From: an uncultured Thermoleophilaceae bacterium | GTDB lineage: Bacteria > Actinomycetota > Thermoleophilia > Solirubrobacterales > Thermoleophilaceae | Direction: 5' to 3' | Assembly (NCBI GenBank): GCA_963821275.1 | Contig: CAWGDF010000012.1 | Location: 34,271-98,270, forward strand | Length of the DNA stretch: 64,000 nt | Shown: positions 44,209 through 64,000 of the stretch, one piece after another | Position numbering within the stretch: position 1 is the stretch's first letter | Layout: each line of letters starts with the position of its first letter | Made by a program: the position numbers and the translations under genes | Notes under the pieces: model-generated | Databases searched by the model: none | Told to the model about the DNA's origin: nothing | What the model saw: only the letters and a program-made list of their open reading frames with translations

Positions 44209-44826
44209 ATGCGGGCCGTATTGCGCTTCCTCGCGGCCGTGATGATCGTGAGCGGGGTGCTGCTCATCGGTGACGCGGCCGCGACTCTGCTCTGGCAGGA
44301 GCCCGTGTCCGCGTTCGTCTCCGAGCGCCAGCAGACCAAGCTCGAGGAGCAGCTCTTCGACCCGCCGGCTCCGGTCAAGAAGCGGGTTCGCGAGCGCCGG
44401 CCGCTTCCGGGCGACGCCATCGGCAAGCTCCAGATCCCGGCGATCGGCGTGTCCGAGTACGTGGTCGAGGGCACCGACACGGGCAACCTGCGCAAGGGGC
44501 CGGGTCACTACCCCGACACGCCGCTGCCCGGGGAGCGCGGCACGGTGGCGATCGCCGGCCACCGGACGACCTACGGGGCTCCCTTCCGCGACGTAAACAA
44601 GCTCAGGCGGGGGCAGGTGATCTCGCTCGACCTGCCCTACGGCCGCTTCATCTACCGCGTGGAGCGGGTGAAGATCGTCGACGACCAGGACCTGTCGGTG
44701 CTGGAGCCCGTCGGCCACGACCGCCTCATGCTGAGCGCCTGCCATCCGCTCTACAGCGCCGCCCAGCGAGTGATCGTGTTCGCCCGGCTCGCCCGGCGCG
44801 CGCGGTCCACGGTCAAGCGGGCATGA
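44209..44826 (+). CDS. sortase family transpeptidase (class E-like)
   Basis: N-terminal TM anchor, [12 protein letters not shown] (catalytic His), LMLSACHP (catalytic Cys in an LxxxC context) and RVIVFARL (Arg). The ATG is at 44209. Confidence 0.85.
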
Positions 44827-44846
44827 TGGCCGGCACGGCGCCGCCG

Positions 44847-45845
44847 CTAGTGAGCGCGGCGGCGGCGCTGGTGACCGCGCCGGTAGAGCGTCGCCCGAAG
44901 ACGAGCCAGAGCAGCGCGGCCCCGGCGCCCCGCCGTCAGGCCGGCGAGGATCGCGGGGAAACGACGATCGAGAGCGGCGGCCCGCGGCTGCGTTCTCAGG
45001 GCGGCCCGGAGCGCCGCGCGCGCGGCGGGTGCGTCGTCCGCCTGAAGCCGGTCGAGTGCCAACGACAGGCGCAACCCAGCGCGCCGTTCGCGGCGCTCGG
45101 ACTCGCTCAACCGCAGGTCGGGAGCGAGCTCGCGCGCGAGGGCATCGCCGTGCTCAAACAGGGCCGCAAAGTCCTCCGCCTGGCCGGGGAGACCTGACAT
45201 CTGGGCGTCGTGAGCGCGGTACTCGGCGTCGGTCTCGTCGACACAGCCCACCGGGAACCGCAGGACGAGGCGCAGCCAGAGCTCCCAGTCGAAGAGGCGC
45301 GGGAACGCAGCGTCGAGCCGTGCGCCGGCGGCTTCGAGCGCCTCGCGGCGCACCACGACGCTGTGCATCACGTCGATGACGCTGCGCCGCAGGAGGTCGG
45401 GGACGATGCGCTCACGCGGCACCACCCCCTCCGGATAGGGAGCCGGGGCACGCGCGGTCACCTCCCCCCTCTCGTTGATGTCCACGTGCCCCGAGAACAC
45501 GAGGGCGCACTCGGGATGCTCCTCCAGGAACGACAGCCTCCGCTCGAGGAAGCGCGGCCCCCAACGGTCGTCGTCGTGCAGCAGGGCGAAGTAGGGGGCC
45601 GAGGCGGCCTGCATCAGGGTGGTCATAGCTTGGGTCGCGGTCATCGGCTCGGCCCGGCGGTGTTCGAGTCGGGCGTCGTCGCGAAACGCCCGCAGCGCAT
45701 CGCCGATGGCGTCGTCCCGCGAGTCGTCGAGCACGATCAAGCGCAGCTCACGGGTCGTCTGGCCCAACACGGATTCCACCGCCTCGGCCAGGAAGAGCGG
45801 CTGGCCGTGCGCGGGCATCCCGATGTCCACGAGCGGCGCGTCCAC
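44847..45845 (-). CDS. glycosyltransferase family 2
   Basis: VDIGMPAHGQPLFLAEAVESVLGQTTRELRLIVLDDS...ALLHDDD is the GT-A fold with a DxD motif. Confidence 0.85.
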   Translation of the reverse strand: MDAPLVDIGMPAHGQPLFLAEAVESVLGQTTRELRLIVLDDSRDDAIGDALRAFRDDARLEHRRAEPMTATQAMTTLMQAASAPYFALLHDDDRWGPRFLERRLSFLEEHPECALVFSGHVDINERGEVTARAPAPYPEGVVPRERIVPDLLRRSVIDVMHSVVVRREALEAAGARLDAAFPRLFDWELWLRLVLRFPVGCVDETDAEYRAHDAQMSGLPGQAEDFAALFEHGDALARELAPDLRLSESERRERRAGLRLSLALDRLQADDAPAARAALRAALRTQPRAAALDRRFPAILAGLTAGRRGRAALARLRATLYRRGHQRRRRAH

Positions 45846-45944
45846 CCCGCTGGCGTCAGCCGGCCGCGGCGATGCGCCGGTTGAGGGCGTCCACGCGCGT
45901 CATCACAGGGTGGGAAGCGTATCCGCCCTCAGCCACCGCGCCGG

Positions 45945-46817
45945 TCAGGTGCTCACAACCGTGAGCAGGAGCCGCTCGAGCCATTCCGGACCCTCGTCCT
46001 CGACCCACAGGCGGGGCAGCTCGAAGCGGTCGGTCAGGCGGGTGACAGGCCCCGGAGCCGTGCCCGCGCCCAGCTCGTACCCGGCCCGGCGCACGGCGCG
46101 CCGCGCGGCCGCGCCGTGGTCGCCGAAGGGGTAGGCGAAGGTGCCCGGCGGGGAGCCGAGCCAGTCGGCGAGATCTGCACGACTTCCCTCCACCTCCTCG
46201 CGCAGCGTGTCCGGGCTCTGGGCCGCCAGCCCCACGTGAGCGCGGGTGTGGGCGCCCACGTCGATCAGCGGACTGGCCGCGAAGCGTCGGAGCTCATCCG
46301 CCGTCAGGGGCCGTGTCGCTCCGGTATCGACCGGCCCGGCGACGCCGGCCTCGGCTCGCACCTTCGCCAGCTCCGCCATCAGCGTGCCGGGGTCCGAACG
46401 CCGCAGCGTGTCTTGGAGGTCGAAACGCCCCACCGCCTCCAGCTCGTCCCACCAGTAGGGTCGCCCGTCGCGGATGAAGCTCGTGGCCGCGAACAGCGTC
46501 GCGGGGAGCTCCGCGGCCGTCAACGCCGGCAGGGCGGCGGTGAGGTTGTCCACGTAGCCGTCGTCGAAGCTGATGGCCACGGCGCGCGGGGGCAGCGCGC
46601 TCCGGCGCGCCGCCTGAGCGAGCTCCGACAGCCGCAGCACCCGGAACTCGGCCGCGAGCAGCCCCAGCTGCGCGGCGAAGCGCTCGGGACGTACCCGCAT
46701 CCGCCAGCGGTCCGGATCGTCCTCGGCGGCCACGCGGTGATAGAGCAGGATGGCGCCCCGCGGGGAGGCGCGCCGGGCCAGGTAGCGCCGGCCCACCGCC
46801 AGCGATCGGGCGATCAC
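45945..46817 (-). CDS. polysaccharide deacetylase (CE4 / NodB homology)
   Basis: VAISFDDGYVDN is the NodB motif 1. Also present are GAHTRAH and FAYPFGD. Confidence 0.85.
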   Translation of the reverse strand: MIARSLAVGRRYLARRASPRGAILLYHRVAAEDDPDRWRMRVRPERFAAQLGLLAAEFRVLRLSELAQAARRSALPPRAVAISFDDGYVDNLTAALPALTAAELPATLFAATSFIRDGRPYWWDELEAVGRFDLQDTLRRSDPGTLMAELAKVRAEAGVAGPVDTGATRPLTADELRRFAASPLIDVGAHTRAHVGLAAQSPDTLREEVEGSRADLADWLGSPPGTFAYPFGDHGAAARRAVRRAGYELGAGTAPGPVTRLTDRFELPRLWVEDEGPEWLERLLLTVVST

Positions 46818-46966
46818 GCCAGTTGAGCGGGTGTCAGCCGGTGGCTGTCCTCCTCCACCTGCGAGGCATCTCGAGACTCGAAGAAGAGAATCAGAAGCAC
46901 CACCAGCACCAGTGACACCGCCAGCACCGCGAGCCAGTACAGGACCTTGAGAAGGGTGCGAATCAC
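46814..46966 (-). CDS. putative 50-aa single-pass membrane micro-protein coupled to the deacetylase
   Basis: Not in the ORF track (below 60 aa). Hand translation from the GTG at 46966 gives VIRTLLKVLYWLAVLAVSLVLVVLLILFFESRDASQVEEDSHRLTPAQLA*. Its TGA overlaps the deacetylase GTG as GTGA. Confidence 0.45.
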   Translation of the reverse strand: MIRTLLKVLYWLAVLAVSLVLVVLLILFFESRDASQVEEDSHRLTPAQLA

Positions 46967-47013
46967 CGCGCAGGCAGCATACGGACCGGCGCCGAGCCTA
47001 AGATGACGGGCCT

Positions 47014-47751
47014 ATGGGCACCCGGGCGGTGATACTTGCCGGCGGCAAAGGGTCGCGACTCGGGCCCTACACCACCGTCCTCCCCAAGCCGCTGCTGCCG
47101 GTCGGCGATCGCGCCATTCTCGACGTTGTGGTCCGCCAGCTGCGCAGCTACGGCTTTCACGATCTCACGCTCGCCGTGGGCTACCTCTCACATCTGGTGC
47201 GCGCGGTCATGGGCGACGGTACACGCCACGGCGTGACGATCCGCTACCACGAGGAGGAGGAGCCGCTGGGCACTGTCGGGCCGCTCGCGACGATCGAGGG
47301 GCTCGACAGCACCTTCCTGATGATGAACGGCGACGTGCTCACGTCGCTCGACTACGGCCAGCTCCTGGACATGCACAAGGAGGCCGGCAACGTCCTGACC
47401 GTGGCCTCCCACCGGCGCACCGTCAAGATCGACTACGGCGTGCTGCATCTCGGCGAGGCGCGGAGCGAGACTCAGAGGATCGTCGACTTCGAGGAGAAGC
47501 CCGAGCTCGGTTATGTGGTCAGCATGGGCGTCTACGTGCTCGAGCCTCGCGCGGTGGAGTACGTGCCGGAGGGCGAGTACATGGACCTGCCCAACTTGGT
47601 GCTCAAGCTCGTCGAGGCGGGCGAACCGGTGGGCTCGCACGTGTTCGACGGCTACTGGCTCGACATCGGCCGCCACGAGGACTACGAGCAGGCCATCCTG
47701 CAGTTTGAGGAGCTGCGTCCGATGCTGATGCGGGAGACCACGGAAGCGTGA
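47014..47751 (+). CDS. sugar-1-phosphate nucleotidylyltransferase
   Basis: AVILAGGKGSRLGPYTTVLPKPLLPV is the NTP-transferase signature G-x-G-x-R-L...K. The protein is 245 aa. Confidence 0.9.
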   Translation: MGTRAVILAGGKGSRLGPYTTVLPKPLLPVGDRAILDVVVRQLRSYGFHDLTLAVGYLSHLVRAVMGDGTRHGVTIRYHEEEEPLGTVGPLATIEGLDSTFLMMNGDVLTSLDYGQLLDMHKEAGNVLTVASHRRTVKIDYGVLHLGEARSETQRIVDFEEKPELGYVVSMGVYVLEPRAVEYVPEGEYMDLPNLVLKLVEAGEPVGSHVFDGYWLDIGRHEDYEQAILQFEELRPMLMRETTEA

Positions 47752-48713
47752 CCGTCCTCGTAACCGGCGGGGCGGGCTACGTGGGTGCGCTCGTGGTCTC
47801 CGAGCTGCTTGCCGCGGGCCGGCAGGTAAGAGTGCTCGACTCGCTGCTCCACGGGCAGGACGCGGTGGCCCGCGAGGTGGAGGCCGGGGGGGAGCTGATC
47901 CGCGGCGACGTGCGCGACGGCGAGCTCCGCGCTCGTGCCGTGGAGGGCGCCGAGGCCGTCGTTCACCTGGCCGCCATAGTCGGTGACCCGGCCTGCGGCC
48001 GGGACCCGGAGCTCTCGCAAGCCGTGAACGTGGAGGGAAGCCGAGGGCTGGTCGACGCCGCGGTGGGCGCAGGTGTCGAACGCTTCGTGTTCGCCTCCAC
48101 CTGCTCGAACTACGGCCGTATGGCCGACCCGACCGTTCCGATCGACGAGACCGCAGAGCTCGCGCCCGTCTCGCTCTATGCGGAGCAGAAGGTGCAGATC
48201 GAGAGGATGCTGCTCGAGGGGAATCACGACGGCCTCCGGCCCACCTGCCTGCGCTTCGCCACCGTGTACGGCGTCGGCCCTCGCATGCGTTTCGACCTGA
48301 CCGTCAACGAGTTCACCCGGGACCTCTGGGCCGGTCGCGAGCTCGAGGTCTTCGGCGAGCAGTTCTGGCGCCCCTACGTCCACGTGGCCGACGCGGCGCG
48401 GGCCGTGCGCACGGTCCTCGAGGCCCCGTCCGAAAAGGTCGCCGGAGAGGTGTTCAACGCCGGTCACTCCGACGAGAACTACCGAAAGCTGGACCTCGTC
48501 GAGTTGATCACTGCGCGGCTGGGCCGGGGCGAGGTGAGCTACGTCCATCGCGACGAGGACCCACGCGACTACAAGGTGTCTTTCGAGAAGATCCGCTCTC
48601 AGCTCGGCTTCGAGCCCCGCTACCGGGTGCCCGACGGGATCGACGAGCTCATCGGTGCCCTCGACGAGCAGCGCTTCGGCGACCCCTTTGACGGCCGCTT
48701 CTCCAACATCTAG
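47748..48713 (+). CDS. NAD-dependent NDP-sugar epimerase/dehydratase (extended SDR)
   Basis: VLVTGGAGYVG, ASTCSNYG and the LYAEQK catalytic YxxxK. The GTG overlaps the upstream stop (GTGA). Confidence 0.9.
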   Translation: MTVLVTGGAGYVGALVVSELLAAGRQVRVLDSLLHGQDAVAREVEAGGELIRGDVRDGELRARAVEGAEAVVHLAAIVGDPACGRDPELSQAVNVEGSRGLVDAAVGAGVERFVFASTCSNYGRMADPTVPIDETAELAPVSLYAEQKVQIERMLLEGNHDGLRPTCLRFATVYGVGPRMRFDLTVNEFTRDLWAGRELEVFGEQFWRPYVHVADAARAVRTVLEAPSEKVAGEVFNAGHSDENYRKLDLVELITARLGRGEVSYVHRDEDPRDYKVSFEKIRSQLGFEPRYRVPDGIDELIGALDEQRFGDPFDGRFSNI

Positions 48714-48719
48714 CGGTCG

Positions 48720-49889
48720 ATGAGCGACACGCTCGTCCCCCTGTTCGACGTTCGGCTCGGGGAGCGCCAGGTGGAGGCGGTGGCGGACACACTGCGTTCC
48801 GGCTGGCTGACCCTGGGGCCGCGGACCAAGGAGTTCGAGGAGGCCTTCGGCGGCATGCTTGGCGCACGCCATGCCGTTGCGGTCTCCAGCTGCACCGCAG
48901 CGCTTCATCTCGCGTACCTGGCCGCCGGCGTGGGCGACGGCGACGAGGTGATCGTCCCCGACATCACCTTTGTGGCCACGGCTGCAGGAGTTCGTTATTG
49001 CGGCGGCGTGCCGGTGCCGGCCGACATCGCCGGCCCCCACGATCTGGGTCTCTCCGTGGAGAGCGTCGAGAGCCTCATCACCGCCCGCACCAAGGCCGTC
49101 TGCGCGGTGCACTACGCGGGCTATGCGGCCGACGTCGAGAGCCTGCGCACCCTCTGCGAGGACCGCGGCCTCGCCCTCATCGAGGACGCCGCGCACAGTC
49201 CGAGCGCCACGCCTGTGGGTGGCGGACCGAAGCTCGGCACCTGGGGCCTGGCGGGATGCTTCAGTTTCTTCTCCAACAAGGTCATCTCGTGCGGCGAGGG
49301 GGGCCTCCTGGCCACCGACGACGATCGTGTGGCCGAGCTCGCCCGCAGCGTGCGTTCCCACGCGATGACGTCCGGTACCTGGGACCGGCACCGGGGGCAC
49401 TCGGCGGGCTACGACGTGACCGGACTGGGCTACAACTACCGCCTCGACGAGCCCCGCGCCGCCCTGCTGCTGGCCCGCCTGCCGGATCTCGAAGCGGACA
49501 TCGCGAACCGTCGTGTGCGCGTGCACCGCTACCGCTCGCTCCTGTCGGGCTTGGCCGGCGTGACGGCGCCCTACACCGACGAGGAGGTCGACTGCTCGTC
49601 CTGCTACGTCATGCCGGTGATGCTGGACCAGCCCGAGCTGCGCGAGGACCTCCGCGCCTTCATGCTCGAGGAGCGTCGCATCCAGACCAGCGTGCTCTAT
49701 CCGGCGGTGCACGAGTTCAGCGCGTACCAGGGAAGCGCCCGCTCCGAGCTGCCGAACAGCCGGCACGCTGCCCGGGCGGAGCTGACGCTCCCGCTCTACC
49801 CCCACCTCACGGAAGGCGATCAGGATCGCGCAGTGGCCGCGCTCGCCGACGGGCTGGCGAAGCTCGGAGCGGCGGCGGGCGCAGGCTGA
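48720..49889 (+). CDS. DegT/DnrJ/EryC1/StrS-family NDP-sugar aminotransferase
   Basis: AVSSCTAALHLA, VIVPDITFVATA, LIEDAAHS and the FSFFSNK PLP lysine. Confidence 0.9.
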   Translation: MSDTLVPLFDVRLGERQVEAVADTLRSGWLTLGPRTKEFEEAFGGMLGARHAVAVSSCTAALHLAYLAAGVGDGDEVIVPDITFVATAAGVRYCGGVPVPADIAGPHDLGLSVESVESLITARTKAVCAVHYAGYAADVESLRTLCEDRGLALIEDAAHSPSATPVGGGPKLGTWGLAGCFSFFSNKVISCGEGGLLATDDDRVAELARSVRSHAMTSGTWDRHRGHSAGYDVTGLGYNYRLDEPRAALLLARLPDLEADIANRRVRVHRYRSLLSGLAGVTAPYTDEEVDCSSCYVMPVMLDQPELREDLRAFMLEERRIQTSVLYPAVHEFSAYQGSARSELPNSRHAARAELTLPLYPHLTEGDQDRAVAALADGLAKLGAAAGAG

Positions 49890-49892
49890 GCC

Positions 49893-51887
49893 ATGTCCGG
49901 CGCCGACCTGCGCGCGAGTCCCGCGGCCCTGCCGTGCCTGCTCGCAGCGGTCGCCCTGCTGGTTCTGGTGGCGGCCGAGGGCGGCTTCCAGCCGGCGGCC
50001 TGGTACGGGGCGGCAGTGCTCGTCCTGGCGCTTCTCGCCGTATGCCTGATCGCGCTGCCGCTGCCACGGCCCGGCTGGCCCGCATTCGCGGCCGCAGGGC
50101 TGGCCTTCGCCTACGCGGCCTGGAGCTGGCTGTCGGTGAGCTGGGCCGACGATCAGGGGGCTGCCGTCGAGGGCGCGAACCGCGCCCTCTTCTACGCCCT
50201 GGTGTTCGCGCTGTTCGCGCTGTGGCCGCTGCACGCGAAGCCCGCCATGGCGCTCATCGGCCTCCTCACCCTGGGCATCGCCGCGATCGGCCTGGTGGAG
50301 CTGCTCCGGGTGGGGTCAGCCCAGGATCCCGTCTCCTTCTTCTTCCGCGGGCGCCTCTCGGAGCCCGTCGGCTACGCGAACGCAAATGTGGCGCTCTGGG
50401 CCATGGGAATGTGGAGCGCGATCGTGCTCGCCGGGAGGCGCGAGCAGCATCCGGCGCTGTCGGGTCTGTTCCTGGGGTCGGCCGGGGTGTTGTCCGGCCT
50501 CTCGCTGCTCGGTCAGAGCCGGGGGTGGCTGCTGGCGCTCCCGGCGGTCGCGGTGGTGGCGGTGGCGATCACACCGGGGCGAGGCCGCGTGCTCGTGGCC
50601 CTGGCGGCCGTGGCGCTGGGCGTGCTCGCCATGGCATCGCCGGTGCTTTCGGTCTACGACGACGCGCCCGACGTCGCCGTCGCCACGAGCTTCCCCGCCG
50701 CCCAGCGGGCGATCCTGATCGTGTCGGCGGTCCTGGTCGTGGTCGGTGCGCTGGCGGCGCTGGTCGACCGGCGGGTGGACATGCCGGCCGACAGCCGGCG
50801 CCGGGTGAGCGCAGGGATCGTCGCCTTGGCGGTGCTCTGCTGCGTCGCGGCCGTTGGCGCCTATGCCGTCGTCAAGGGCAGTCCCTTCGACCGCGTCTCG
50901 CAGGCCTGGGCCGACTTCAAGGAGGGCGGGTCGGCCGGCGCGGGCGAAGGCTCCCGGCTGAGCGACGTGGCCACCAACCGCTACGACTTCTGGAGGGTGG
51001 CCTGGGACAACTTCGAGGCGCATCCGTTGATCGGGGTTGGGGCCGACAACTTCCAGGAGGACTACCTCAGACGCGGCACGAGCGCGGAATCGCCGCGGCA
51101 TCCGCACTCGCTCGAGCTCAAGGTGCTGTCCCAAACTGGACTCGTGGGCGCGCTGATGCTGCTGGGGGTGTTCGCGGCCGCCGGGCTGGCGGCGTCCCCC
51201 GCGCTCTGGCGCGGCCCGCCGTCCGCCGAGAGCGGGCCGGTCGCGGCGGGCGTTGTCGTGTTCGCCTACTTCCTGCTGCACGGATCGGTCGACTGGCTCT
51301 GGGAGTTCGCCGGTCTGGGGGGCGTCGCGTTCGCCTGCCTGGGCATTGCGGTGGCTGCGGCCAAGGGCGGCGAGGCGGTGCCACGATCGGCGGGTGGCTT
51401 GGTGCGGGTGCCGGCACTCGTTGGCGCAGCGGTGGTCGCGCTCGCGCTCGTTCCTGCCTGGTTCTCCGAACGCGGTCAGGAACGCGCTCTCGACGAATGG
51501 CGCCAATCGCCTGCCGACGCCTTCGACCGGCTCGACCGAGCCGCTGCGCTCAACCCGTGGAGCGCGACGCCGGCCGTGATCGCGGGCTCGATCGCCGTGA
51601 CCCTCGGCGACGAGGAGCGCGCCGTCGCCGAGTTTCGGGAAGCTCTCCGGCGCGATCCGCGGAACTCATACGCGCTGCTGATGCTGGGTGCCCTGCTGTC
51701 GCAGCAGGGCAATGAGGCCGCTGCGCGCCGCCTGCTGGCGCGGGCGGTCGAGGCGGCGCCCAACGCCGAGCTGGCCAACGCCGCGCGACGGCGAGTCGCC
51801 CGCGGTCGTCGTCTCGATGCGTCCAGGGTCGCGGCTAGTCTGCGGAGCGCCACCGAGAGGCGTGTGGCGCGCGATTTTCAGGACTGA
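49893..51887 (+). CDS. O-antigen ligase/polymerase family (Wzy_C) membrane protein with C-terminal TPR-like domain
   Basis: Multi-TM N-terminal two-thirds. The Wzy_C-like block reads NRYDFWRVAWDNFEAHPLIGVGADNFQEDY...PRHPHSLELKVLSQTGLVG. The C-terminal helical repeats read AVAEFREALRRDPRNSYALLMLGALLSQQGNEAAARRLLARAVEAAPN. Confidence 0.85.
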   Translation: MSGADLRASPAALPCLLAAVALLVLVAAEGGFQPAAWYGAAVLVLALLAVCLIALPLPRPGWPAFAAAGLAFAYAAWSWLSVSWADDQGAAVEGANRALFYALVFALFALWPLHAKPAMALIGLLTLGIAAIGLVELLRVGSAQDPVSFFFRGRLSEPVGYANANVALWAMGMWSAIVLAGRREQHPALSGLFLGSAGVLSGLSLLGQSRGWLLALPAVAVVAVAITPGRGRVLVALAAVALGVLAMASPVLSVYDDAPDVAVATSFPAAQRAILIVSAVLVVVGALAALVDRRVDMPADSRRRVSAGIVALAVLCCVAAVGAYAVVKGSPFDRVSQAWADFKEGGSAGAGEGSRLSDVATNRYDFWRVAWDNFEAHPLIGVGADNFQEDYLRRGTSAESPRHPHSLELKVLSQTGLVGALMLLGVFAAAGLAASPALWRGPPSAESGPVAAGVVVFAYFLLHGSVDWLWEFAGLGGVAFACLGIAVAAAKGGEAVPRSAGGLVRVPALVGAAVVALALVPAWFSERGQERALDEWRQSPADAFDRLDRAAALNPWSATPAVIAGSIAVTLGDEERAVAEFREALRRDPRNSYALLMLGALLSQQGNEAAARRLLARAVEAAPNAELANAARRRVARGRRLDASRVAASLRSATERRVARDFQD

Positions 51888-52069
51888 GCGGGGCCGTGAT
51901 CTTGGTCACGTTTAGCAAGTATTTAGTGGCGAGTTGCGAAGGACCGTGGTACTTCTGGGGCGAGGTCGGAAGCAGGGCGGAGCAGGAAGTTTCTCGTCGG
52001 CCTCGATCATTCTGAAGAGGTTGCCGTGCATGAGCACGGCGCCTTCACTCGAAAAGGAGCCTTCTGGTC

Positions 52070-52354: not shown

Positions 52355-52401
52355 CACCCCCGCCGGCCACCGCCGGCAGGGCCAAAGACCAGAGTAACTC
52401 C

Positions 52402-52427: not shown

Positions 52428-52433
52428 TTCTAC

Positions 52434-56848: not shown

Positions 56849-56883
56849 GCCGGATATAGTCCCCCGGACTCGCGATCGGGGGG

Positions 56884-58020: not shown

Positions 58021-61000
58021 ATGAGAAGGTCGATCGTGCCCCAGCGCCCGGTCCCCTCGCTCGTTCGCGCCTCGACGCCTGCCTTGGCGTGCGCCGTGAT
58101 CCTCGCCCTGGGCGCGCTGACCGCCGGGGCGGCCGGCGCCGCTCCACGCGCTGCCGAGCCCGGCAGTCACGGGCTCGCAGGGGTCCCCGAGGCACAACTG
58201 CACGACTTCGAGACGCAGGTGCTCGGGCCGGCGCACGCCCGCGAGCACGCCCGTCTGCGCGCCGCGGAGCGCGCCGGGCTGATCAGCGAAGCGGAGGCGG
58301 CCCACGCGGAGTCCAACCGCGACGAGGCGTCCGCGGGCCGGCTGGCGCCCTTGGCGGCGAGCGACGACCCGGCCGTGGCAGGCCGCTGGAGCGCCCCGTT
58401 CTCCATACCGGTCATGGGCATCCACGCCGCGATGCTGCCCACGGGCAAGGCGATGTGGTGGTCCTACCCGATCAACCCGAATCGGCCCTACGGCGACCCG
58501 AGCTACCCGAACACCGCCCAGGCCTGGCTGTGGGACCCGGCGACGGGACAGACCAAGCGGGTGGACCCGCCCCTGTGGCGTGATCCCGCCGACGGTCAGC
58601 TCAAGCCGGCCAACATCTGGTGCAGCGGCCAATCCTTCCTCGCCGACGGGCGGCTGCTCGTAACGGGCGGCAACCTGGCCTACCAGGGCGCGGGCAACCC
58701 GCCCTTTGCCGACTACGCCGGCCTCAACAAGGTCTACACCTTCAACCCCTTCAACGAGACCTGGACCGAGCAGCCCGACATGGCGCGCGGGCGCTGGTAC
58801 CCGAGCCAAGCGCTTCTTCCCGACGGGCGGGCGGTGATCATGTCCGGCCAGGACGAGGGGGGCGTGCCCTCGCGCTACAACAAGGACATCGAGATCCTAA
58901 CGCCGTCGGTATCGCTCGACGGGCGCGGCACGATCAGCCGGCTGGGGGGCCGCGGCGGCGCCGGGCAGCCGCCCGACGGCGGCCTCTACCCCCACCTGTT
59001 CGCCATGCCGAGCGGGCGGCTGATGGTCGCGGGCCCGGATCCGAACGACTCCTGGTTCCTCAACGACCCGGGAACGGGCAACGTCTTCGGTTGGAGCGAC
59101 TTTGCGGCTCCGTCTCGCCGGCGGCTGTGGGGTTCCGCAGTCCTGCGCCCCGGCACCGCGGACGGCTCGACCAAGGTCACGCTGCTGGGCGGGTCGATGC
59201 CCGACTACTCCACCAGCCCGCCCTCGAACGCCGGGGGCGTCGCGAGCACCGAGACCCTGGACGAGGCCAACTCCGCCGCCGGCTGGCAGCCGGGCGCCGC
59301 CATGAACATCGGCCGCAGCCATCTGAACACCGTGCTCCTGCCCGACAGCTCCATGGTCACGGTGGGAGGCGGTGTGGGCACGCGGCAACCGGAGGGCCAA
59401 TGGGCGGCCGACCCCAAGCAGCGGCAGGTCGAGCTCTATGACCCTGCCTCGAACAGCTGGCGGCTCGGGGCCGCTCAGGCCGAGTCGCGGGCCTACCACT
59501 CCACGGCGCTCCTGCTCCCGGACGCGCGCGTGCTGTCCGCCGGCGATGACGTCAACGGCGGCATCGACCGTGACACGGCCGAGATATACGAGCCGCCCTA
59601 TCTCTTCAAGGGCCCGCGGCCGACCATCAGCTCCGCTCCCGCCACGCTGAAGATCGGACAGTCCGCCAGCGTGGACACCGCTGGTGCGACGGCGGCAAAG
59701 GCCGTGCTGGTGGCCCCCGCGGCGGTGACGCACGCCAACGACATGAACCAGCGCGTGGTGCCGCTGGTGGCGACGCCGCGCAGCGGCGGGCTGACCGTGA
59801 GCGCTCCCGCGGCCGGCACGATCGCACCTCCCGGCTACTACATGATGTTCGTGTTGAGCGACCAGGGCGTGCCCTCGGTGGCCAAGTGGGTCAGGCTCGA
59901 GCCCAACGCGAGCGCGCCGCCGGCCGGCCTGGTGGCGGCTTACTCGTTCGACGAGGGGACCGGAACCAGCGTCGCCGACGCAGCGGGCAAGGGCAACGGC
60001 GGCACGATCTCCGGCGCAAGCTGGGACTCGGCGGGCAGGAACGGCAAGGCGCTCTCCTTCGACGGGGTCGACGATCGCGTGACCGTCCCGGACGCGAACA
60101 GCCTCGATCTCACCTCCTCGATGACCCTCGAGGCTTGGATCAAGCCGCGGACGGCGGGCGGGTATCGCACGGCGATCCTCAAGGAACGCCCGGGCAATCT
60201 CGCCTACGCGCTCTATGCGAGCACGACCCAAGCAAACCGGCCCGCCGCGGAGGCGGGATCGGCGGAGTTGCTTGGCTCTTCGGCGCTGACCGCCAACACG
60301 TGGAGTCACCTGGCCGCCACCTACGACGGCTCGGTGCTGCGGCTGTACGTGAACGGTGCGCTGGTGGGTTCGAAGAACCAGTCCCTCGGGCTGCCGACGT
60401 CGGGCAACCCGCTGCGGATCGGCGGCAACGCGGTCTGGACCGACGAGCATTTCGACGGCCTGATCGACGACGTGCGCGTGTACAACCGCGCGCTCAGCCC
60501 AAGCGAGATCCAGGCGGACAGAGACACGCCGGTGGGCGGCGGTGCCCCCCCGCCGCCGCCACCACCCCCGGACACCACCGCGCCGTCGGTGTCGCTCACC
60601 GCTCCCGCCGACGGCGCGACCCTCTCCGGCACCGTCAACGTGACCGCCAACGCGTCCGACGACACGGCGGTAAGCGGCGTCCAGTTCAAGCTCGACGGGC
60701 AGAACCTCGGAGCAGAGGACACGACCGCCCCCTACGCGCTCCCCTGGAACACCGTCTCGGCGAGCAACGGCAGCCATAGCCTCACCGCCGTCGCCCGCGA
60801 TGCCGCCGGGAACAGCAGGACATCCGCAGCGCGCTCGGTAACTGTCCAGAACTCCAGCACCCCCCAGGGGCTGGTGGCCGCCTACTCCTTCAACGAGGGC
60901 TCCGGCACGATCGCCACCGACGCGTCCCCCCGGCGCAACACCGGAGCAGTCAGCGGAGCCGCCTGGACGGGCGCCGGGCGCAACGGCGGCGCGCTCAGCT

Positions 61001-61491
61001 TCGACGGCGTCGACGACTGGGTCGCGGTGCCGGACGCGGACTCGCTCGACCTCACGAACCGAATGACCCTCGAGGCCTGGGTGCGGCCCGGGACAGCGAG
61101 CGCCTGGCGCACGGTGATCCTCAAGGAGCGGATCGGGAGCCTCGCCTACGCTCTCTACTCGAGCACCACGAGCGCCGGCCGCCCGAATGCCGAGGCGGGC
61201 TCGGCCGACCTCTACGGGGCCTCCGCCCTCCCGACGTCCGCCTGGAGCCACCTGGCCGCCACCTACGACGGCTCCACCCTGCGCTTCTATGTCAACGGGA
61301 CCGAGGTGGCCTCGCGCTCGTCGACTGTCCTGATGCCGAAAACGACCGGTGCGCTCCGGATCGGCGGCAATTCGATCTGGGGCGAGTTCTTCCAGGGAAC
61401 GCTGGACGACGTAAGGATCTACGACCGCTCCCTGAGCGCCGCGGAGGTTCGATCTGACCGGGACACAGCCGTGCCGCTCGGAACGCCCTAG
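58021..61491 (+). CDS. secreted multidomain protein: galactose-oxidase/glyoxal-oxidase-like kelch propeller + DUF1929-like domain + LamG + Ig-like + LamG
   Basis: N-terminal signal-like region, then IWCSGQSFLADGRLLVTGG...RWYPSQALLPDGRAVIMSG...RAYHSTALLLPDARVLSAGDD...VTHANDMNQR...PPGYYMMFVL (glyoxal-oxidase-like). It also holds two ~205-aa concanavalin-A-like LamG modules and a PPPPPPPP linker plus an Ig-like module (TAPSVSLTAPADGATLSGTVNVTANASDDTAVSGVQFKLDG). Confidence 0.85.
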   Translation: MRRSIVPQRPVPSLVRASTPALACAVILALGALTAGAAGAAPRAAEPGSHGLAGVPEAQLHDFETQVLGPAHAREHARLRAAERAGLISEAEAAHAESNRDEASAGRLAPLAASDDPAVAGRWSAPFSIPVMGIHAAMLPTGKAMWWSYPINPNRPYGDPSYPNTAQAWLWDPATGQTKRVDPPLWRDPADGQLKPANIWCSGQSFLADGRLLVTGGNLAYQGAGNPPFADYAGLNKVYTFNPFNETWTEQPDMARGRWYPSQALLPDGRAVIMSGQDEGGVPSRYNKDIEILTPSVSLDGRGTISRLGGRGGAGQPPDGGLYPHLFAMPSGRLMVAGPDPNDSWFLNDPGTGNVFGWSDFAAPSRRRLWGSAVLRPGTADGSTKVTLLGGSMPDYSTSPPSNAGGVASTETLDEANSAAGWQPGAAMNIGRSHLNTVLLPDSSMVTVGGGVGTRQPEGQWAADPKQRQVELYDPASNSWRLGAAQAESRAYHSTALLLPDARVLSAGDDVNGGIDRDTAEIYEPPYLFKGPRPTISSAPATLKIGQSASVDTAGATAAKAVLVAPAAVTHANDMNQRVVPLVATPRSGGLTVSAPAAGTIAPPGYYMMFVLSDQGVPSVAKWVRLEPNASAPPAGLVAAYSFDEGTGTSVADAAGKGNGGTISGASWDSAGRNGKALSFDGVDDRVTVPDANSLDLTSSMTLEAWIKPRTAGGYRTAILKERPGNLAYALYASTTQANRPAAEAGSAELLGSSALTANTWSHLAATYDGSVLRLYVNGALVGSKNQSLGLPTSGNPLRIGGNAVWTDEHFDGLIDDVRVYNRALSPSEIQADRDTPVGGGAPPPPPPPPDTTAPSVSLTAPADGATLSGTVNVTANASDDTAVSGVQFKLDGQNLGAEDTTAPYALPWNTVSASNGSHSLTAVARDAAGNSRTSAARSVTVQNSSTPQGLVAAYSFNEGSGTIATDASPRRNTGAVSGAAWTGAGRNGGALSFDGVDDWVAVPDADSLDLTNRMTLEAWVRPGTASAWRTVILKERIGSLAYALYSSTTSAGRPNAEAGSADLYGASALPTSAWSHLAATYDGSTLRFYVNGTEVASRSSTVLMPKTTGALRIGGNSIWGEFFQGTLDDVRIYDRSLSAAEVRSDRDTAVPLGTP
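59926..60540 (+). repeat. LamG module copy 1 (intragenic tandem duplication)
   Basis: GLVAAYSFDEGTGTSVADAAGKGNGGTISGASWDSAGRNGKALSFDGVDDRVTVPDANSLDLTSSMTLEAWIKP...IDDVRVYNRALSPSEIQADRDTPV aligns residue by residue with copy 2. Confidence 0.75.
60868..61482 (+). repeat. LamG module copy 2 (intragenic tandem duplication)
   Basis: GLVAAYSFNEGSGTIATDASPRRNTGAVSGAAWTGAGRNGGALSFDGVDDWVAVPDADSLDLTNRMTLEAWVRP...LDDVRIYDRSLSAAEVRSDRDTAV. Confidence 0.75.
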
Positions 61492-61614
61492 TCACAGGCA
61501 CCGCGCTACGATGCGGCGACGAGGATTCCAGGATGGAATCGCAAGCCGAATGGATTCGGCATCGCGCCCGATGCCTATGGCTACCTGCGGCCTTCGGGAG
61601 GGGTCGCGGGCGCG

Positions 61615-62934
61615 TTGTCCGGCCTTCTCCTGCTCGCGGCCGCGCCCGCCTCGAGTGAAGAATCCGTTCCCCAGGGCGGGGGCTGCTCCAGGACCGTCTC
61701 GCCGGGGCCCGTCGCGGACGTGCAGCGGCTGGTCGATTCGCTGGAGGCGGGGCAGACCGGCTGCCTGCGGGCGGGAACCTACGCGGGCTCCCTGAAGATC
61801 ACCACGGCCGGCATCACCCTCCGCGCTCGGCCGGGAGAACGGGTGACTGTCAGCGGTCGCCTCTGGATCGCGGAGGGCGCCGACGAGGTCACGGTCGAAG
61901 GCCTGACCCTAGACGGCCGCAGCCCCCGCGGCCTCCCCTCCCCCACCGTCAACGCGGACGGCGCCGTCTTCCGCAGCAACGACGTGACCAACCGACACAC
62001 CGGAATCTGCTTTTCGCTCGGCCACGCGGCCTACGGGCGCGCCGACGGCACGCTCATCGAGAGCAATCGCATCCATGACTGCGGGCGTCTGCCGGCCACC
62101 AACCACGACCACGGCATCTACGTAGCTGCGGCCAGCCGGACGATGATCCGAAACAACTGGATTCACGACAACGCGGACCGCGGCATCCAGCTGTACCCGG
62201 ATGCCCAGCGGACCGTCATCACCGGGAATGTGATCCACGGCAATGGGCAGGGCGTGATCTTCTCCGGCGACGCAGGAGTCAGCTCGAGCGACAACCTAGT
62301 CCAGGGCAACACGATCACGGGCAGCAACGTACGCAGCAACGTGGAGAGCTTTTATCCGGCGGGCACGCCCGCCGGCCGCAACAACATCGTGCGCGGCAAC
62401 TGCATCAGCGGCGGCGCCCGCGACTTCGGAAACGGCGGGATCGCCGAGCCCAGGGGCTTCCTGCTGTCTGCCAACCTGATCGCGGACCCCCGGTACGCGG
62501 ATCCTGGTGCGAGTGACTTCCGGCTGCTCCCGAACAGCCCCTGCCGGGGCGTACTCGCCCAGCCCGACGCCGTCCCGGGCCCGGCCGGCACGGGGGCAGC
62601 GCACGCGTCGCCGGCGGGCGCTCGGGTGGTACTCAAAGTCCAGCGGCGCTGGGCGCGGCGCGGAGGGCGGCTGCCGTTGCGCGGCCGCGTGCCTGGCGCT
62701 CGCGCCCGCGAGGGTTCGCGCGCGCTGATCGTGGCGCGCTCGGCAGGCAGACGCCGCCGCTTGGCCGCGGCGGACGTGCGGAGAGACGGCCGCTTCCGCG
62801 CCCGGCCGCGTCTGCGCGCGGCCCGCCGGGCACGCACCGTGGGGATTCGGGCGGTCGTGCCGGGCGTAGGCCGGTCGCCCGAGGTGGTCGTGAGCCTCGC
62901 GGGTCAGCGAGCCGGGCCGGCCCGCTTGAGGTAG
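61615..62934 (+). CDS. right-handed parallel beta-helix repeat protein (paralogue B) with Arg-rich C-terminal extension
   Basis: Collinear with 56884..57975: RSNDVTNRHTGICFSLGH, IESNRIHDCGRLPATNHDHGIY, RNNWIHDNADRGIQL, TGNVIHGNGQGVIF and QGNTITGSN. It has a TTG start. The 3' end overlaps the convergent GT4 gene by 31 nt. Confidence 0.8.
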   Translation: MSGLLLLAAAPASSEESVPQGGGCSRTVSPGPVADVQRLVDSLEAGQTGCLRAGTYAGSLKITTAGITLRARPGERVTVSGRLWIAEGADEVTVEGLTLDGRSPRGLPSPTVNADGAVFRSNDVTNRHTGICFSLGHAAYGRADGTLIESNRIHDCGRLPATNHDHGIYVAAASRTMIRNNWIHDNADRGIQLYPDAQRTVITGNVIHGNGQGVIFSGDAGVSSSDNLVQGNTITGSNVRSNVESFYPAGTPAGRNNIVRGNCISGGARDFGNGGIAEPRGFLLSANLIADPRYADPGASDFRLLPNSPCRGVLAQPDAVPGPAGTGAAHASPAGARVVLKVQRRWARRGGRLPLRGRVPGARAREGSRALIVARSAGRRRRLAAADVRRDGRFRARPRLRAARRARTVGIRAVVPGVGRSPEVVVSLAGQRAGPARLR

Positions 62935-64000
62935 AGCAGCTCCTCGTAGAGCGACCCGAAGCGCTCGGCCGCCCGCTCCATCGAATACTCGGGTAGGCGC
63001 ACCGCCGCTGCCTCGCTCAGGCGTCGACCCAGGCCGGGCTGGTCGAGCACCCGGGCCAGCGCGGAGGCGAGGGCCTCCGGATCCCGGCGCGGCACGAGCA
63101 GACCGTTGATCCCGTCGTCCACCACATCGGGAATCCCTCCCACGGCGGTTGTCACCAGCGGGGTCCTGTGCGCCATGCACTCGAACATGAACAGAGGGAG
63201 GCCCTCGAAGTCGGAGCTCATGGCGGCCACGTCAAGCTCATCGAGCACGGCCCCGACGTCAGTGCGGGCGCCCGGCAGGTGCACCCGACCCGCCAGCGGG
63301 GAGCGGCGGGTGGTGGTCGTCAGGTCCGCTCGACAAGGCCCGTCGCCGACGATCACCAAGTGAGCGTCGGGGTGATCCGCCAGCAACAGCGCGAAGGCGT
63401 CGACCAGCACCTCCACGGCCTTCTGCGGACGCAGTTGAGCCACGGTCCCGATCAGCGGAGCACCCGGCGGCACACCCAACTCGCCGCGCACGTCTCCACC
63501 GGGCGGCTCCGAGCGGGCAACGAAGGCCGTGGGGATGGCGATGGTCTTGTGTGCGGGGACGTGCTCGAGCTCGACCATCCGGCGCCGGTCGGCCTCCGAG
63601 ACAGCCACGAAGCGATCCGCGAGGCGTCCGATCAGCTGCCCGTCCAGCAGACGCCGGAGCGGTTGCCCCTCCCACGACCATGTGTGCTCCTGTGCGACGA
63701 TCGCCGGCACCCGGCCGAGCCGGCCGAACAGGCTGCCCCACACGTTCGAGCCGAACTTGTGCGTGTGCAGCAGCTCGATCCGCTCCCGCCGCAGGAACCG
63801 GATCAGTGTCCGAAAGGGCCGCAGGTCATAGCGTCCCGAGCGTCCGAGTCCGAAGTGCGGGATCTGAGCCTCGTCGAGCGCACTCGCGAGCGAGCCGCTG
63901 ACCCCGCGCGTCGCGCACAGCGAGACGCGGAAGCGGTCGCGCGGCATCGCCGCCGCGAGGCCCACCGCGAAGCGCTCCGCTCCCCCCGCGCCGTCCGACA
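62904..64000 (-). CDS. glycosyltransferase family 4 (GT-B), N-terminus beyond window end
   Basis: SSDFEGLPLFMFECMAHRTPLVTTAVGGIPDVV is the GT4 E-x7-E region. The frame stays open upstream of the track start (…SDGAGGAERFAVGLAAAMPRD) to position 64000, so the true start lies outside the window. Confidence 0.85.
   Translation of the reverse strand, partial: SDGAGGAERFAVGLAAAMPRDRFRVSLCATRGVSGSLASALDEAQIPHFGLGRSGRYDLRPFRTLIRFLRRERIELLHTHKFGSNVWGSLFGRLGRVPAIVAQEHTWSWEGQPLRRLLDGQLIGRLADRFVAVSEADRRRMVELEHVPAHKTIAIPTAFVARSEPPGGDVRGELGVPPGAPLIGTVAQLRPQKAVEVLVDAFALLLADHPDAHLVIVGDGPCRADLTTTTRRSPLAGRVHLPGARTDVGAVLDELDVAAMSSDFEGLPLFMFECMAHRTPLVTTAVGGIPDVVDDGINGLLVPRRDPEALASALARVLDQPGLGRRLSEAAAVRLPEYSMERAAERFGSLYEELLYLKRAGPAR

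Follow-up and report, generated by a model that had tools for sequence, protein, structure and literature searches.

What is a sortase substrate with a mature part of only a few dozen residues doing inside a polysaccharide locus? We addressed this question for positions 44209-64000 of a stretch of 64,000 nt, here called the window, on contig CAWGDF010000012.1 (assembly GCA_963821275.1) of an uncultured Thermoleophilaceae bacterium. An earlier note on this DNA had proposed that a glycan is moved en bloc onto the 94-aa mini-protein, which a sortase then attaches to peptidoglycan. Our analysis partly supports this interpretation, and the points that can be tested in silico fall in the predicted direction. 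En bloc O-glycosylation of the mini-peptide followed by sortase anchoring is the best reading, and we give it an about even chance of being right.

Gene content of the locus

Given the G+C content of 72%, third-position GC was used for gene calling. Pfam and NCBIfam searches recovered every gene that the earlier note had listed (Table 1). Judged by their content, these genes show a variable Wzx/Wzy-type locus, predicted to make its glycan on undecaprenyl phosphate. The two beta-helix paralogues share 54% identity, and the oxidase matches NCBIfam GlxA with 207 bits, which is under that model's cut-off.

Table 1. Features of the locus, in window coordinates (nt)
Feature	Position	Strand	Evidence or remark
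Sortase, 205 aa, N-terminal TM anchor	44209-44826	+	PF04203, E 4e-31
GT2 glycosyltransferase	44847-45845	-	PF00535, E 2e-14
CE4 polysaccharide deacetylase	45945-46817	-	PF01522, E 6e-21
50-aa single-TM micro-ORF	46814-46966	-	overlaps start of CE4 gene
Sugar-1-phosphate nucleotidyltransferase (NTP_transferase)	47014-47751	+	PF00483, E 1e-38
SDR NDP-sugar epimerase/dehydratase	47748-48713	+	PF01370, E 9e-46
DegT/PLP sugar aminotransferase	48720-49889	+	PF01041, E 4e-99
Wzy_C-TPR membrane protein	49893-51887	+	PF04932, 60.8 bits (cut-off 31.7); TPR families
Mini-protein, 94 aa, LPFTG	52070-52354	+	direct sequence reading
Tyr33 codon of mini-gene	52166-52168	+	
LPFTG of mini-gene	52244-52258	+	
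11-bp G+C hairpin, 3' of mini-gene	52402-52427	+	terminator/attenuator candidate
Wzx-type (MOP) flippase	52434-53918	+	PF01943, E 5e-24
GT4 glycosyltransferase	53965-55137	-	PF13692, PF00534
SAM methyltransferase	55171-55941	+	PF13489, PF08241
D-glucuronyl C5-epimerase-like protein (C5-epim_C)	55934-56908	-	PF06662, E 3e-42
Secreted right-handed beta-helix protein, paralogue A	56884-57975	+	PF13229
GlxA-like radical copper oxidase, 2x LamG, Big_7, 1156 aa	58021-61491	+	PF07250, PF09118, PF13385 x2
Beta-helix protein, paralogue B	61615-62934	+	PF13229, NosD
GT4 glycosyltransferase	62904-63965	-	PF13692, E 6e-34

As previously remarked, the window yielded no initiating phosphoglycosyltransferase (phmmer, Bac_transf query), nor was a chain-length regulator present among the locus genes or the 30 largest upstream ORFs supported by third-position GC (Pfam, Wzz). 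This Pfam-scanned part of the window, which leaves out short upstream gaps such as 11.2-12.6 kb and 21.7-22.6 kb, also holds no LCP gene, and the 30 upstream ORFs belong to unrelated metabolism. The initiating transferase for this locus must be encoded elsewhere.

The mini-protein and its pairing with Wzy_C-TPR

The mini-gene is preceded by the ribosome-binding site AAAGGAG and encodes a signal peptide of AxA type (residues 1-25), a G/S/T/D-rich spacer (Q26-T62), LPFTG, a hydrophobic/TM stretch and an RR tail. Thus, the mature part has the length of 37 residues given in the earlier note, and a six-frame scan of the 64 kb confirmed that this is the sole LPXTG-type signal. The protein belongs to an unannotated family (104 homologues in one search; 305 cluster representatives at E<=1e-10), and we detected no enzyme-like domain in it. 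Of the ectodomain columns in the family alignment, Y33 alone is invariant, the remainder being a variable low-complexity spacer. Downstream of the gene, the segment 52352-52432 has a minimum free energy of -46.5 kcal/mol (z = -3.84), and a strong hairpin recurs at this place in 42% of loci as compared to 7% of random segments, which would suit a structural product made in abundance; a strict consensus terminator scan was negative. Together with the gene's own ribosome-binding site, the hairpin points to production of the mini-protein in stoichiometric excess.

Of the 64 species-level genomes of Thermoleophilia, 48 have a family member no more than 3 kb from a Wzy_C-TPR gene, and in 34 of the 64 it follows that gene on the same strand within 600 bp. 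The order sortase, micro-TM ORF, sugar-nucleotide genes, Wzy_C-TPR, mini recurs in all seven independent metagenome contexts. The mini-gene is missing from 10-12 genome loci with adequate flanks. These co-occurrence counts are raw, that is, taken without correction for phylogeny, and the relatives are all MAGs or metagenome contigs. The pairing is kept despite rearranged surroundings and Wzy_C identities as low as ~35%, whether the mini-gene lies upstream, downstream or on the opposite strand and whether or not a sortase is present. Distances of the two proteins co-vary when the sortase is controlled for (partial Mantel r = 0.78, permutation p = 0.0005), and in one relative (L074) the sortase is 91% identical to that of the window, Wzy_C-TPR 45% and the mini-protein 33%. 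Wzy_C-TPR and the mini-protein are hence a pair that is exchanged jointly, as one cassette, while the class-E-type sortase next to it is conserved.

The earlier note had asked whether the mini-gene is conserved between Wzy_C-TPR and Wzx. Its place beside Wzy_C-TPR is conserved class-wide, whereas its place beside the flippase is not, the downstream neighbour being Wzx, a GT4, a CE4 or a phosphoglycosyltransferase. Judged by synteny, the constant unit is therefore Wzy_C-TPR plus mini and not mini plus flippase. In about 35 relatives' loci the initiating phosphoglycosyltransferase adjoins the pair, so that the peptide gene sits among core glycan-assembly genes. These patterns bear on the view that a housekeeping sortase and an ordinary small substrate merely happen to lie near a polysaccharide locus, functionally unlinked to it. 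Such coincidence would agree with a class-E-type sortase that is much more conserved than its neighbours and adjoins the housekeeping genes PEPCK and DAO in many genomes. However, it fits poorly with an adjacency that outlasts many rearrangements and spans Solirubrobacterales and Gaiellales, with joint replacement of the pair and with the frequent phosphoglycosyltransferase next door, and we consider it very improbable.

The AlphaFold2 model of Wzy_C-TPR (pLDDT 91.5, pTM 0.93) has as its top Foldseek match in the PDB the ligase WaaL (7tpg_B, E 1.5e-5, TM 0.56), likewise a member of Pfam Wzy_C, although no match between the two is detectable at the sequence level. The membrane domain is thus predicted to have the WaaL ligase fold. 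In the model, four TM helices lie between the 328-415 loop and the C-terminal TPR domain, the latter on the extracytoplasmic face, and R363, D365 and H405 are invariant among 43 sequences. The protein is a candidate O-oligosaccharyltransferase or ligase; fold and Pfam membership fit a protein-directed transferase, a polymerase and a ligase with lipid or glycan acceptor alike, and sequence and profile comparisons with WaaL and Wzy do not discriminate between them. The NCBIfam model of TfpM, whose cut-off is 600, gives it 22.8 bits, a relationship at Pfam-domain level only.

Alternatively, the mini-protein may be an accessory subunit, tethered to membrane or wall. Bound to the TPR domain, it would control the activity of Wzy_C-TPR, its location or the chain length of its product, and Wzy_C-TPR itself would act as a glycan polymerase or as a ligase with a non-protein acceptor such as a lipid, peptidoglycan or a further glycan. 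Adjacency and co-variation suit any physical partnership equally. Moreover, one clade has longer mini variants whose signal is degenerate and which have no sortase nearby, so wall anchoring is not universal; these variants retain the Tyr motif and the C-terminal TM helix and have lost LPXTG, hence tethering to the membrane suffices for some lineages. No second Wzy_C gene was seen in the window, and Wzy_C-TPR might therefore be the polymerase. However, the loci of at least 10 relatives hold a second, TPR-less Wzy_C (~470 aa), which could be the true polymerase, and two relatives (L073 and L074) possess a separate Wzz-type chain-length regulator. A low-complexity ectodomain with one invariant residue is also unlike a folded regulatory subunit, and the suggested excess of the mini-protein speaks against such a role as well. 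We regard the subunit explanation as unlikely, though deserving of consideration.

The sortase, its small neighbour and the amine-forming genes

The best NCBIfam model for the sortase is class E, although its 133 bits fall short of the cut-off of 160; close homologues carry the NCBI name class E sortase, and 5cuw (SrtE1) and 5utt are among its best PDB relatives. The catalytic residues H118, C178 and R187 are invariant in the alignment. It is of class-E type and probably the general, housekeeping enzyme of the lineage. Of 44 distinct family members whose signal is canonical, 22 have a sortase within 10 kb (the count includes the query window, 21 of 43 without it, and the metagenome loci L001-L008), as against none of the 12 whose signal is degenerate. 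Hence, the description of the locus as organised around the sortase does not hold, while the contrast between the two kinds of signal speaks for sortase anchoring of the mini-peptide.

The 50-aa micro-ORF, with 13 invariant alignment columns and a conserved juxtamembrane motif, FFESRD, had been regarded as coupled to the CE4 gene. Instead, it occurs only in sortase-bearing loci (17 of 17), in 12 of them arranged tail-to-tail with the sortase gene and no more than 60 bp from its 3' end, and is a sortase-associated factor. It resembles SafA, the small TM partner of an actinobacterial class E sortase (52 aa; PMC9282373), in being single-pass, of similar size, found only with a sortase and usually abutting it. 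Unlike SafA, it is convergent with the sortase rather than co-directional and has FFESRD in place of PGP or FPW.

The sortase might also link the C-terminal Thr of the peptide not to peptidoglycan but to a glycan amine, provided by a free amino sugar, deacetylated GlcN or an aminoacylated sugar. In T9SS, the transpeptidase PorU joins protein C-termini covalently to an amine of A-LPS, and synthesis of the linking sugar involves, besides an aminotransferase, the CE4 deacetylase VimE and the acyltransferase VimA (PMC7468200). Both in the window and in its nearest relatives, the genes flanking the sortase include the CE4 deacetylase and the DegT aminotransferase trio, which lacks an N-acetyltransferase, and in several loci a PF13480 acyltransferase adjoins the sortase. 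However, T9SS operates at a Gram-negative outer membrane, and the amino-sugar trio, present here (47014-49889) as the earlier note had it, is not universal: L074 possesses sortase, Wzy_C-TPR, mini and phosphoglycosyltransferase and has neither aminotransferase nor CE4 within 10 kb, which puts the amine-forming genes outside the constant core. Linkage to a glycan amine would also leave the invariant pairing of mini and Wzy_C-TPR unexplained. To our knowledge, lipid II is the substrate of the class E sortases characterised so far, which likewise counts against this possibility; we rate it as rather improbable.

Proposed route and related systems

For the preferred reading, glycosylation of the mini-peptide before anchoring, a precedent is GspA of Actinomyces oris, in which glycosylation comes first and class E sortase anchoring second (PMC6381275). 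In the GspA/LcpA/SrtA system, as proposed here, a polymer from a lipid-linked donor is put on a sortase substrate before peptidoglycan anchoring (PMC6381275), and the genes of transferase and substrate are adjacent. However, that transferase is an LCP phosphotransferase, whereas the candidate here has a Wzy_C/WaaL-type fold, and GspA measures ~25 kDa as compared to a 37-residue stalk. Wzy_C-type O-oligosaccharyltransferases (PglL, PilO, TfpM; WsaB and WsfB of S-layer glycosylation) transfer Und-PP-linked glycans en bloc to Ser, Thr or Tyr at the membrane's outer face; PglL and WsfB are reported to share the C-terminal TPR domain with the protein studied here, and WsfB serves the O-glycosylation of tyrosine (PMC2943079). 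These enzymes modify pilins, S-layer proteins or many different proteins, none of them sortase-anchored, whereas here a dedicated candidate mini-acceptor is encoded beside the enzyme. WaaL, in turn, ligates to lipid A-core in Gram-negatives and has no TPR domain. The exopolysaccharide loci of the PEP-CTERM/exosortase (XrtA) system similarly combine a protein-sorting enzyme with small low-complexity proteins bearing a C-terminal signal, and the XrtA-system families PrsT, stp2, EpsB_2 and EpsF are among the best NCBIfam matches of several proteins of our locus, all below cut-off. However, exosortase is unrelated to sortase, and signal, cell envelope type and taxa all differ.

We infer the transfer of glycan to the mini-peptide and its stapling to peptidoglycan to proceed as follows. 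The outward-facing TPR domain of the Wzy_C protein would recognise the secreted mini-peptide encoded just downstream, held in the membrane via its C-terminal helix, and the enzyme would move the lipid-linked glycan onto it, most plausibly at Y33. The class-E-type sortase would then cut LPFTG between Thr and Gly and link the glycopeptide to peptidoglycan, resulting in a wall polysaccharide tethered via a peptide of ~37 residues, with the Wzy_C-TPR/mini pair serving as a glycan-specific cassette. Our data thus suggest that Thermoleophilia, which are soil actinobacteria, may fasten polysaccharide to the cell wall by a previously undescribed peptide stalk.

Gene content of the glycan locus

Because the window has a G+C content of 72%, coding frames were picked by third-position GC. 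Pfam and NCBIfam searches recovered all the genes that the earlier note had named at 44209-64000 (see the table below), including the genes of a Wzx/Wzy-dependent pathway, i.e. a MOP flippase, glycosyltransferases and sugar-nucleotide genes. The same note had seen neither an initiating phosphoglycosyltransferase nor a chain-length regulator. Indeed, phmmer detected no initiating polyprenyl-phosphate glycosylphosphotransferase in the 64-kb window, and no Wzz or BY-kinase was present among the window ORFs scanned. The co-occurrence of a CE4 N-deacetylase, a C5-epimerase-like protein and a GlxA-like oxidase with LamG domains hints that the polymer is glycosaminoglycan-like and, once assembled, becomes deacetylated, epimerised and oxidised.

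Upstream of the sortase gene, Pfam analysis of the 30 largest GC3-supported ORFs, with a few short gaps between them lying outside the scan, revealed unrelated metabolism (F420 biosynthesis, methylmalonyl-CoA mutase/MeaB, PEPCK). The F420 cofactor biosynthesis cluster comprises an F420-dependent NADP oxidoreductase, a CofC-like guanylyltransferase, an F420:glutamyl ligase and an 809-aa radical-SAM CofH/FbiC-like protein, and is unrelated to the glycan locus. The genes for methylmalonyl-CoA mutase and MeaB are separated by an endonuclease-like ORF, perhaps a small inserted element.

Positions of features in the window and in related loci (L numbers)
Feature	Sequence	Position	Strand	Assigned by
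F420 cofactor biosynthesis cluster	window	1228-8048		
DUF559 / MTES_1575 endonuclease-like ORF	window	25489-26112		
Sortase	window	44209-44826	+	
GT2 glycosyltransferase	window	within 44209-64000		Pfam/NCBIfam
CE4 N-deacetylase	window	45945-46817		Pfam/NCBIfam
Micro-TM protein (50 aa)	window	46814-46966	-	
Nucleotidyltransferase / SDR / DegT trio	window	within 44209-64000		Pfam/NCBIfam
Wzy_C-TPR protein	window	49893-51887	+	
Mini-protein (94 aa)	window	52070-52354	+	
Hairpin after mini-gene	window	52352-52432		folding
Wzx flippase (MOP)	window	within 44209-64000		Pfam/NCBIfam
Two GT4 glycosyltransferases	window	within 44209-64000		Pfam/NCBIfam
Methyltransferase	window	within 44209-64000		Pfam/NCBIfam
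Two beta-helix paralogues, mutual identity 54%	window	within 44209-64000		Pfam/NCBIfam
Heparosan-type glucuronyl C5-epimerase-like protein	window	55934-56908		Pfam/NCBIfam
1156-aa GlxA-like radical copper oxidase fused to two LamG domains	window	58021-61491		Pfam/NCBIfam
Micro-TM copy	L073	about 10608-10760		
Micro-TM copy	L074	about 10608-10760	-	
TPR-less Wzy_C	L003	19599-		
TPR-less Wzy_C	L006	18300-		
TPR-less Wzy_C	L011	15683-17236		
TPR-less Wzy_C	L012, L013, L016, L030, L032, L048, L055			
PF13480 acyltransferase	L003	2869-3954		
PF13480 acyltransferase	L006	1892-2941		
PF13480 acyltransferase	L008	2971-4038		
PF13480 acyltransferase	L013, L014			

A family of small LPXTG proteins paired with a Wzy_C-TPR protein

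The mini-gene is preceded by a good ribosome-binding site and encodes a protein composed of an AxA signal peptide, a 37-residue mature segment (~37 in the earlier note), LPFTG, a hydrophobic helix and an RR tail. With its C-terminal sorting signal (LPFTG-AELGVLAGAGAALLLVGFGL-RRMTHSPRAVS) and the N-terminal AxA signal peptide it is a full LPXTG protein, and a six-frame scan of the 64 kb revealed no second sortase-type signal, in agreement with its designation as the sole LPXTG substrate. Pilin-like polymerisation was rejected, as the mature peptide contains no lysine.

An exact-sequence lookup of the mini-protein retrieved no database record, and no NCBIfam or Pfam model matched it. Homology searching returned 104 homologues at E<=0.01, which measure 78-158 aa except for a single 53-aa fragment; none has a Pfam domain, and all source names, where given, read 'hypothetical protein' save one mislabelled TonB. 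When 1.84 billion cluster representatives were searched with a profile, 305 matched at E<=1e-10, and the number rose to 2191 at E<=1e-3. Of the 145 new sequences drawn from the top 150 representatives, 140 carry LPFTG, and LAFTG was seen once in the family. The mini-protein is a member of a real, widespread and unannotated family, whose common elements are a signal peptide, one Tyr, a variable G/S/T/D/P-rich spacer and a highly conserved sorting signal. The Tyr sits 8-12 residues past the cleavage site, mostly within S-G-Y-G-G, and when 30 members were aligned independently with MAFFT it formed the sole invariant ectodomain column (Y33 in the window). It is present in 56/56 distinct locus-derived members, as counted in an analysis anchored on the motif itself, and those top-150 sequences that lack G/A-Y still have a Tyr at the equivalent position.

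Seven of seven independent metagenome contexts, represented by mini-protein homologues of 37-59% identity, exhibit the order sortase, micro-TM ORF, nucleotidyltransferase, (SDR), DegT, Wzy_C(-TPR), mini-gene, followed by differing downstream genes. Scanning the Wzy_C-TPR alignment against one genome per species provided 64 loci, all of them in Thermoleophilia MAGs (Solirubrobacterales, Thermoleophilaceae, Gaiellaceae, Paraconexibacteraceae), in which family members were detected by HMM and motif search of six-frame ORFs. A member lies within 3 kb of Wzy_C-TPR at any position in 48/64 loci, a count made with an HMM derived from these very loci and not phylogenetically independent, all relatives being MAGs or metagenome contigs. 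The member is located directly downstream (<=600 bp, same strand) in 34 loci, further downstream within 3 kb in five and upstream in nine. In four loci the downstream flank was too short for judgement, and in 12, two of them with atypical copies, no member was detected near Wzy_C-TPR. Moreover, distances of Wzy_C-TPR and the mini-protein covary when the sortase is controlled for (partial Mantel r = 0.78, permutation p = 0.0005, 22 loci).

Thus, of the arrangement in which the mini-gene lies between Wzy_C-TPR and Wzx, the first neighbour is conserved and the second is not: the gene downstream may be Wzx, GT4, CE4 or a phosphoglycosyltransferase, so that lying 'between Wzy_C and flippase' is incidental. 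What stays constant is the pair of Wzy_C-TPR and the Tyr-motif peptide. The amino-sugar trio was rejected as part of this constant core, as it is missing from L074, a related locus. An initiating phosphoglycosyltransferase adjoins the pair in about 35 related loci, the one in L074 matching TIGR03025 at 381 bits (cut-off 295.55), and L073 and L074 both have a chain-length regulator (Wzz/BY-kinase). In the most compact form, found on two long contigs, the genes are PEPCK(-), sortase, Wzy_C-TPR, mini, phosphoglycosyltransferase, GT4, SDR, GT4, Wzx and Wzz/BY-kinase.

The strong hairpin that follows the mini-gene (z = -3.84) recurs, as strong hairpins were found at this site in 42% of loci as compared to 7% of random segments. 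The hairpins are G+C-rich and have no long U tract, and a strict consensus promoter/terminator scan found nothing. Such a recurrent hairpin fits an abundantly expressed structural product, and by attenuation the hairpins may tune how much peptide is made relative to the downstream enzymes.

The Wzy_C-TPR protein matches PF04932 (60.8 bits, cut-off 31.7) and, at residues 564-630, TPR families. An AlphaFold2 model from 43 sequences (pLDDT 91.5, pTM 0.93) predicts a WaaL-like multi-TM fold with a large outer loop: its best PDB match in Foldseek is WaaL (7tpg_B, E 1.5e-5, target TM-score 0.56), and the remaining matches are TPR domains, O-GlcNAc transferase among them. The loop (residues 328-415) bears the invariant residues R363, D365 and H405 and precedes four TM helices, after which comes the TPR domain; the latter should therefore reside on the same, outer side. 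Wzy_C combined with a C-terminal TPR has been reported for the O-oligosaccharyltransferases PglL and WsfB, the latter being part of a tyrosine O-glycosylation system (PMC2943079), and the protein studied here has this type of architecture, i.e. Wzy_C plus an extracytoplasmic C-terminal TPR module. Curated O-oligosaccharyltransferase models did not claim it (TfpM 22.8 bits, cut-off 600; no other such model matched). PDB profile searches retrieved only TPR proteins with the whole protein and only spurious claudin matches with the membrane domain. Since hhalign of the membrane domain with E. coli WaaL and the O16 polymerase WbbH produced no usable alignment, sequence comparison did not separate ligase from polymerase.

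In at least ten related loci, a TPR-less Wzy_C of about 470 aa is encoded within 10 kb of the TPR-bearing one; none was seen in the window, which stops 12 kb past the mini-gene. The TPR-less protein is likely the true polymerase, and the two forms fit a polymerase/ligase division of labour. The adjacency and covariation described above would suit any physical partnership, including one in which the mini-peptide serves a polymerase or ligase as an accessory or regulatory partner. We consider this unlikely, given that relatives possess a separate TPR-less Wzy_C and a Wzz and that the ectodomain is a low-complexity spacer.

The sortase and the exchangeable glycan cassette

The sortase matches PF04203 (107.8 bits, cut-off 26.6) and has an intact catalytic His-Cys-Arg triad (H118, C178 and R187, invariant in the sortase alignment). 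Class E is its best NCBIfam class, at 133 bits and thus under the cut-off of 160; close homologues carry the NCBI name class E sortase, and top PDB relatives include SrtE1 (5cuw) and 5utt. The LAXTG preference of class E is unmatched here, the linked substrate family being overwhelmingly LPFTG. The enzyme is best described as class-E-like.

Comparison of L074 (10001-13313) with the window (44209-52354) revealed 91% identity for the sortase, 45% for Wzy_C-TPR and 33% for the mini-protein, and wholly different glycan genes (in L074 phosphoglycosyltransferase, GT4, SDR, GT4, Wzx, Wzz), which amounts to diversification of a serotype-like kind next to a sortase and PEPCK that stay fixed. The sortase is conserved far beyond its neighbour genes and is probably a general, housekeeping enzyme rather than a dedicated one. 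This conservation, together with the covariation of Wzy_C-TPR and the mini-protein, indicates that the ligase, peptide and glycan genes act like a replaceable serotype cassette. A conserved sortase located among housekeeping genes could also have come to lie next to the pair by coincidental synteny, yet the pairing outlasts rearrangements and cassette replacement, making mere coincidence very improbable.

In a Solirubrobacteraceae clade (L019-L023, L026, L034, L043, L057, L063, L070), long mini-protein variants of 170-260 aa are encoded ~200 bp downstream of the Wzy_C-TPR match and directly followed by a phosphoglycosyltransferase gene. They retain LLSGYGGPG and the C-terminal helix, and their LPXTG has decayed to LGFSG, WFSG or GVSG; no sortase was found within 10 kb of them. 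Across 56 distinct family members, including the window and the metagenome loci L001-L008, a sortase lies within 10 kb of 22/44 members with a canonical signal as compared to 0/12 with a degenerate one (Fisher p = 0.0017, uncorrected for kinship).

The micro-TM protein, which has a single TM segment (motif YWLAVLAVS..LLVLFFESRD), is confined to sortase-bearing loci (17/17), and in 12 of these 17 its gene is tail-to-tail with the sortase gene, within 60 bp of its 3' end. The copies in L073 and L074 had been overlooked by gene callers. A role as partner of the CE4 enzyme was rejected, as the micro-ORF tracks the sortase. In size and position the protein resembles SafA, the class E sortase-associated factor; however, the defining SafA motifs PGP and FPW are absent, FFESRD being conserved instead, and the orientation differs as well. 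Homology to SafA was therefore not adopted.

Directly upstream of the sortase, several relatives, unlike the window, encode a PF13480 (Acetyltransf_6) acyltransferase, which bears on the idea of an acylated glycan amine as sortase nucleophile. The sortase might accordingly couple the C-terminus of the mini-peptide to a glycan amine, in the style of PorU and the A-LPS linking sugar (PMC7468200). Such a reaction would fit the nearby DegT trio, CE4 and PF13480 enzyme, but L074 has no amine-forming genes within 10 kb and we regard this scenario as improbable.

A candidate peptide-anchored route for wall polysaccharide

Taking as established the gene content, the conserved pairing and covariation, the WaaL fold, the outer-face location deduced for the TPR domain, the intact triad and the canonical sorting signal, we infer two steps, glycosylation of the mini-peptide en bloc by Wzy_C-TPR and subsequent anchoring to peptidoglycan by the sortase, a sequence of events to which we give an even chance. 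The Und-PP-linked glycan made by the locus would be moved en bloc to the mini-peptide, which the C-terminal helix would keep in the membrane during transfer. The invariant Tyr would be the best candidate acceptor, with spacer Ser/Thr also possible. Next, the sortase would cut LPFT|G and join the glycopeptide to peptidoglycan. More specifically, and more tentatively, the product made by Thermoleophilia could be a proteoglycan-like conjugate, in which a core peptide of ~40 residues is O-glycosylated at the invariant Tyr with polymerised polysaccharide by the WaaL-fold/TPR transferase and covalently linked to peptidoglycan by the class-E sortase. In this window, the polysaccharide on the conjugate may be deacetylated, C5-epimerised and oxidised.

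Wall glycopolymers of Gram-positive bacteria are known to be attached by LCP phosphotransferases, and Wzy_C protein O-glycosylation and sortase anchoring are each known on their own. To our knowledge, the two are not known as a single pathway with a purpose-built mini-acceptor. The components all belong to known families (sortase, LPXTG signal, Wzy_C/WaaL fold, Wzx pathway). Among the closest systems are the PglL/WsfB O-oligosaccharyltransferases and GspA/LcpA/SrtA, which is a precedent for glycosylation before sortase anchoring: the LPXTG protein GspA of Actinomyces oris is glycosylated from a lipid-linked donor and then anchored by a class E sortase (PMC6381275). There, however, the transferase is an LCP enzyme, and neither the scanned window ORFs nor the annotated related loci yielded an LCP (LytR-CpsA-Psr) domain. 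PEP-CTERM/exosortase EPS loci are close by logic only; exosortase-system families are among the best, sub-threshold NCBIfam matches of several locus proteins. Our literature searches returned nothing on Thermoleophilia sortases and no described system joining O-antigen ligase, sortase and LPXTG. Nor did we find the present combination, that is a dedicated mini-acceptor beside a TPR-bearing WaaL-fold enzyme in hypervariable glycan loci, coupled to a class-E sortase with an associated micro-TM protein.

If true, wall polysaccharides would have a third means of attachment, besides LCP phosphotransfer and lipid anchors, with a ligase/peptide pair that is swapped like a serotype cassette. The model would account for the TPR-bearing ligase paralogue alongside a plain Wzy_C, and a short sequon peptide with its matching O-oligosaccharyltransferase and a sortase handle would constitute a very compact glyco-engineering tool. 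Several hundred small hypothetical proteins would gain a function, and a new way of assembling the envelope would be defined in a soil class that is abundant and poorly studied. In view of GspA in Actinomyces, the model would also suggest that class E sortases may have an ancient, central role in anchoring a small glycosylated protein.
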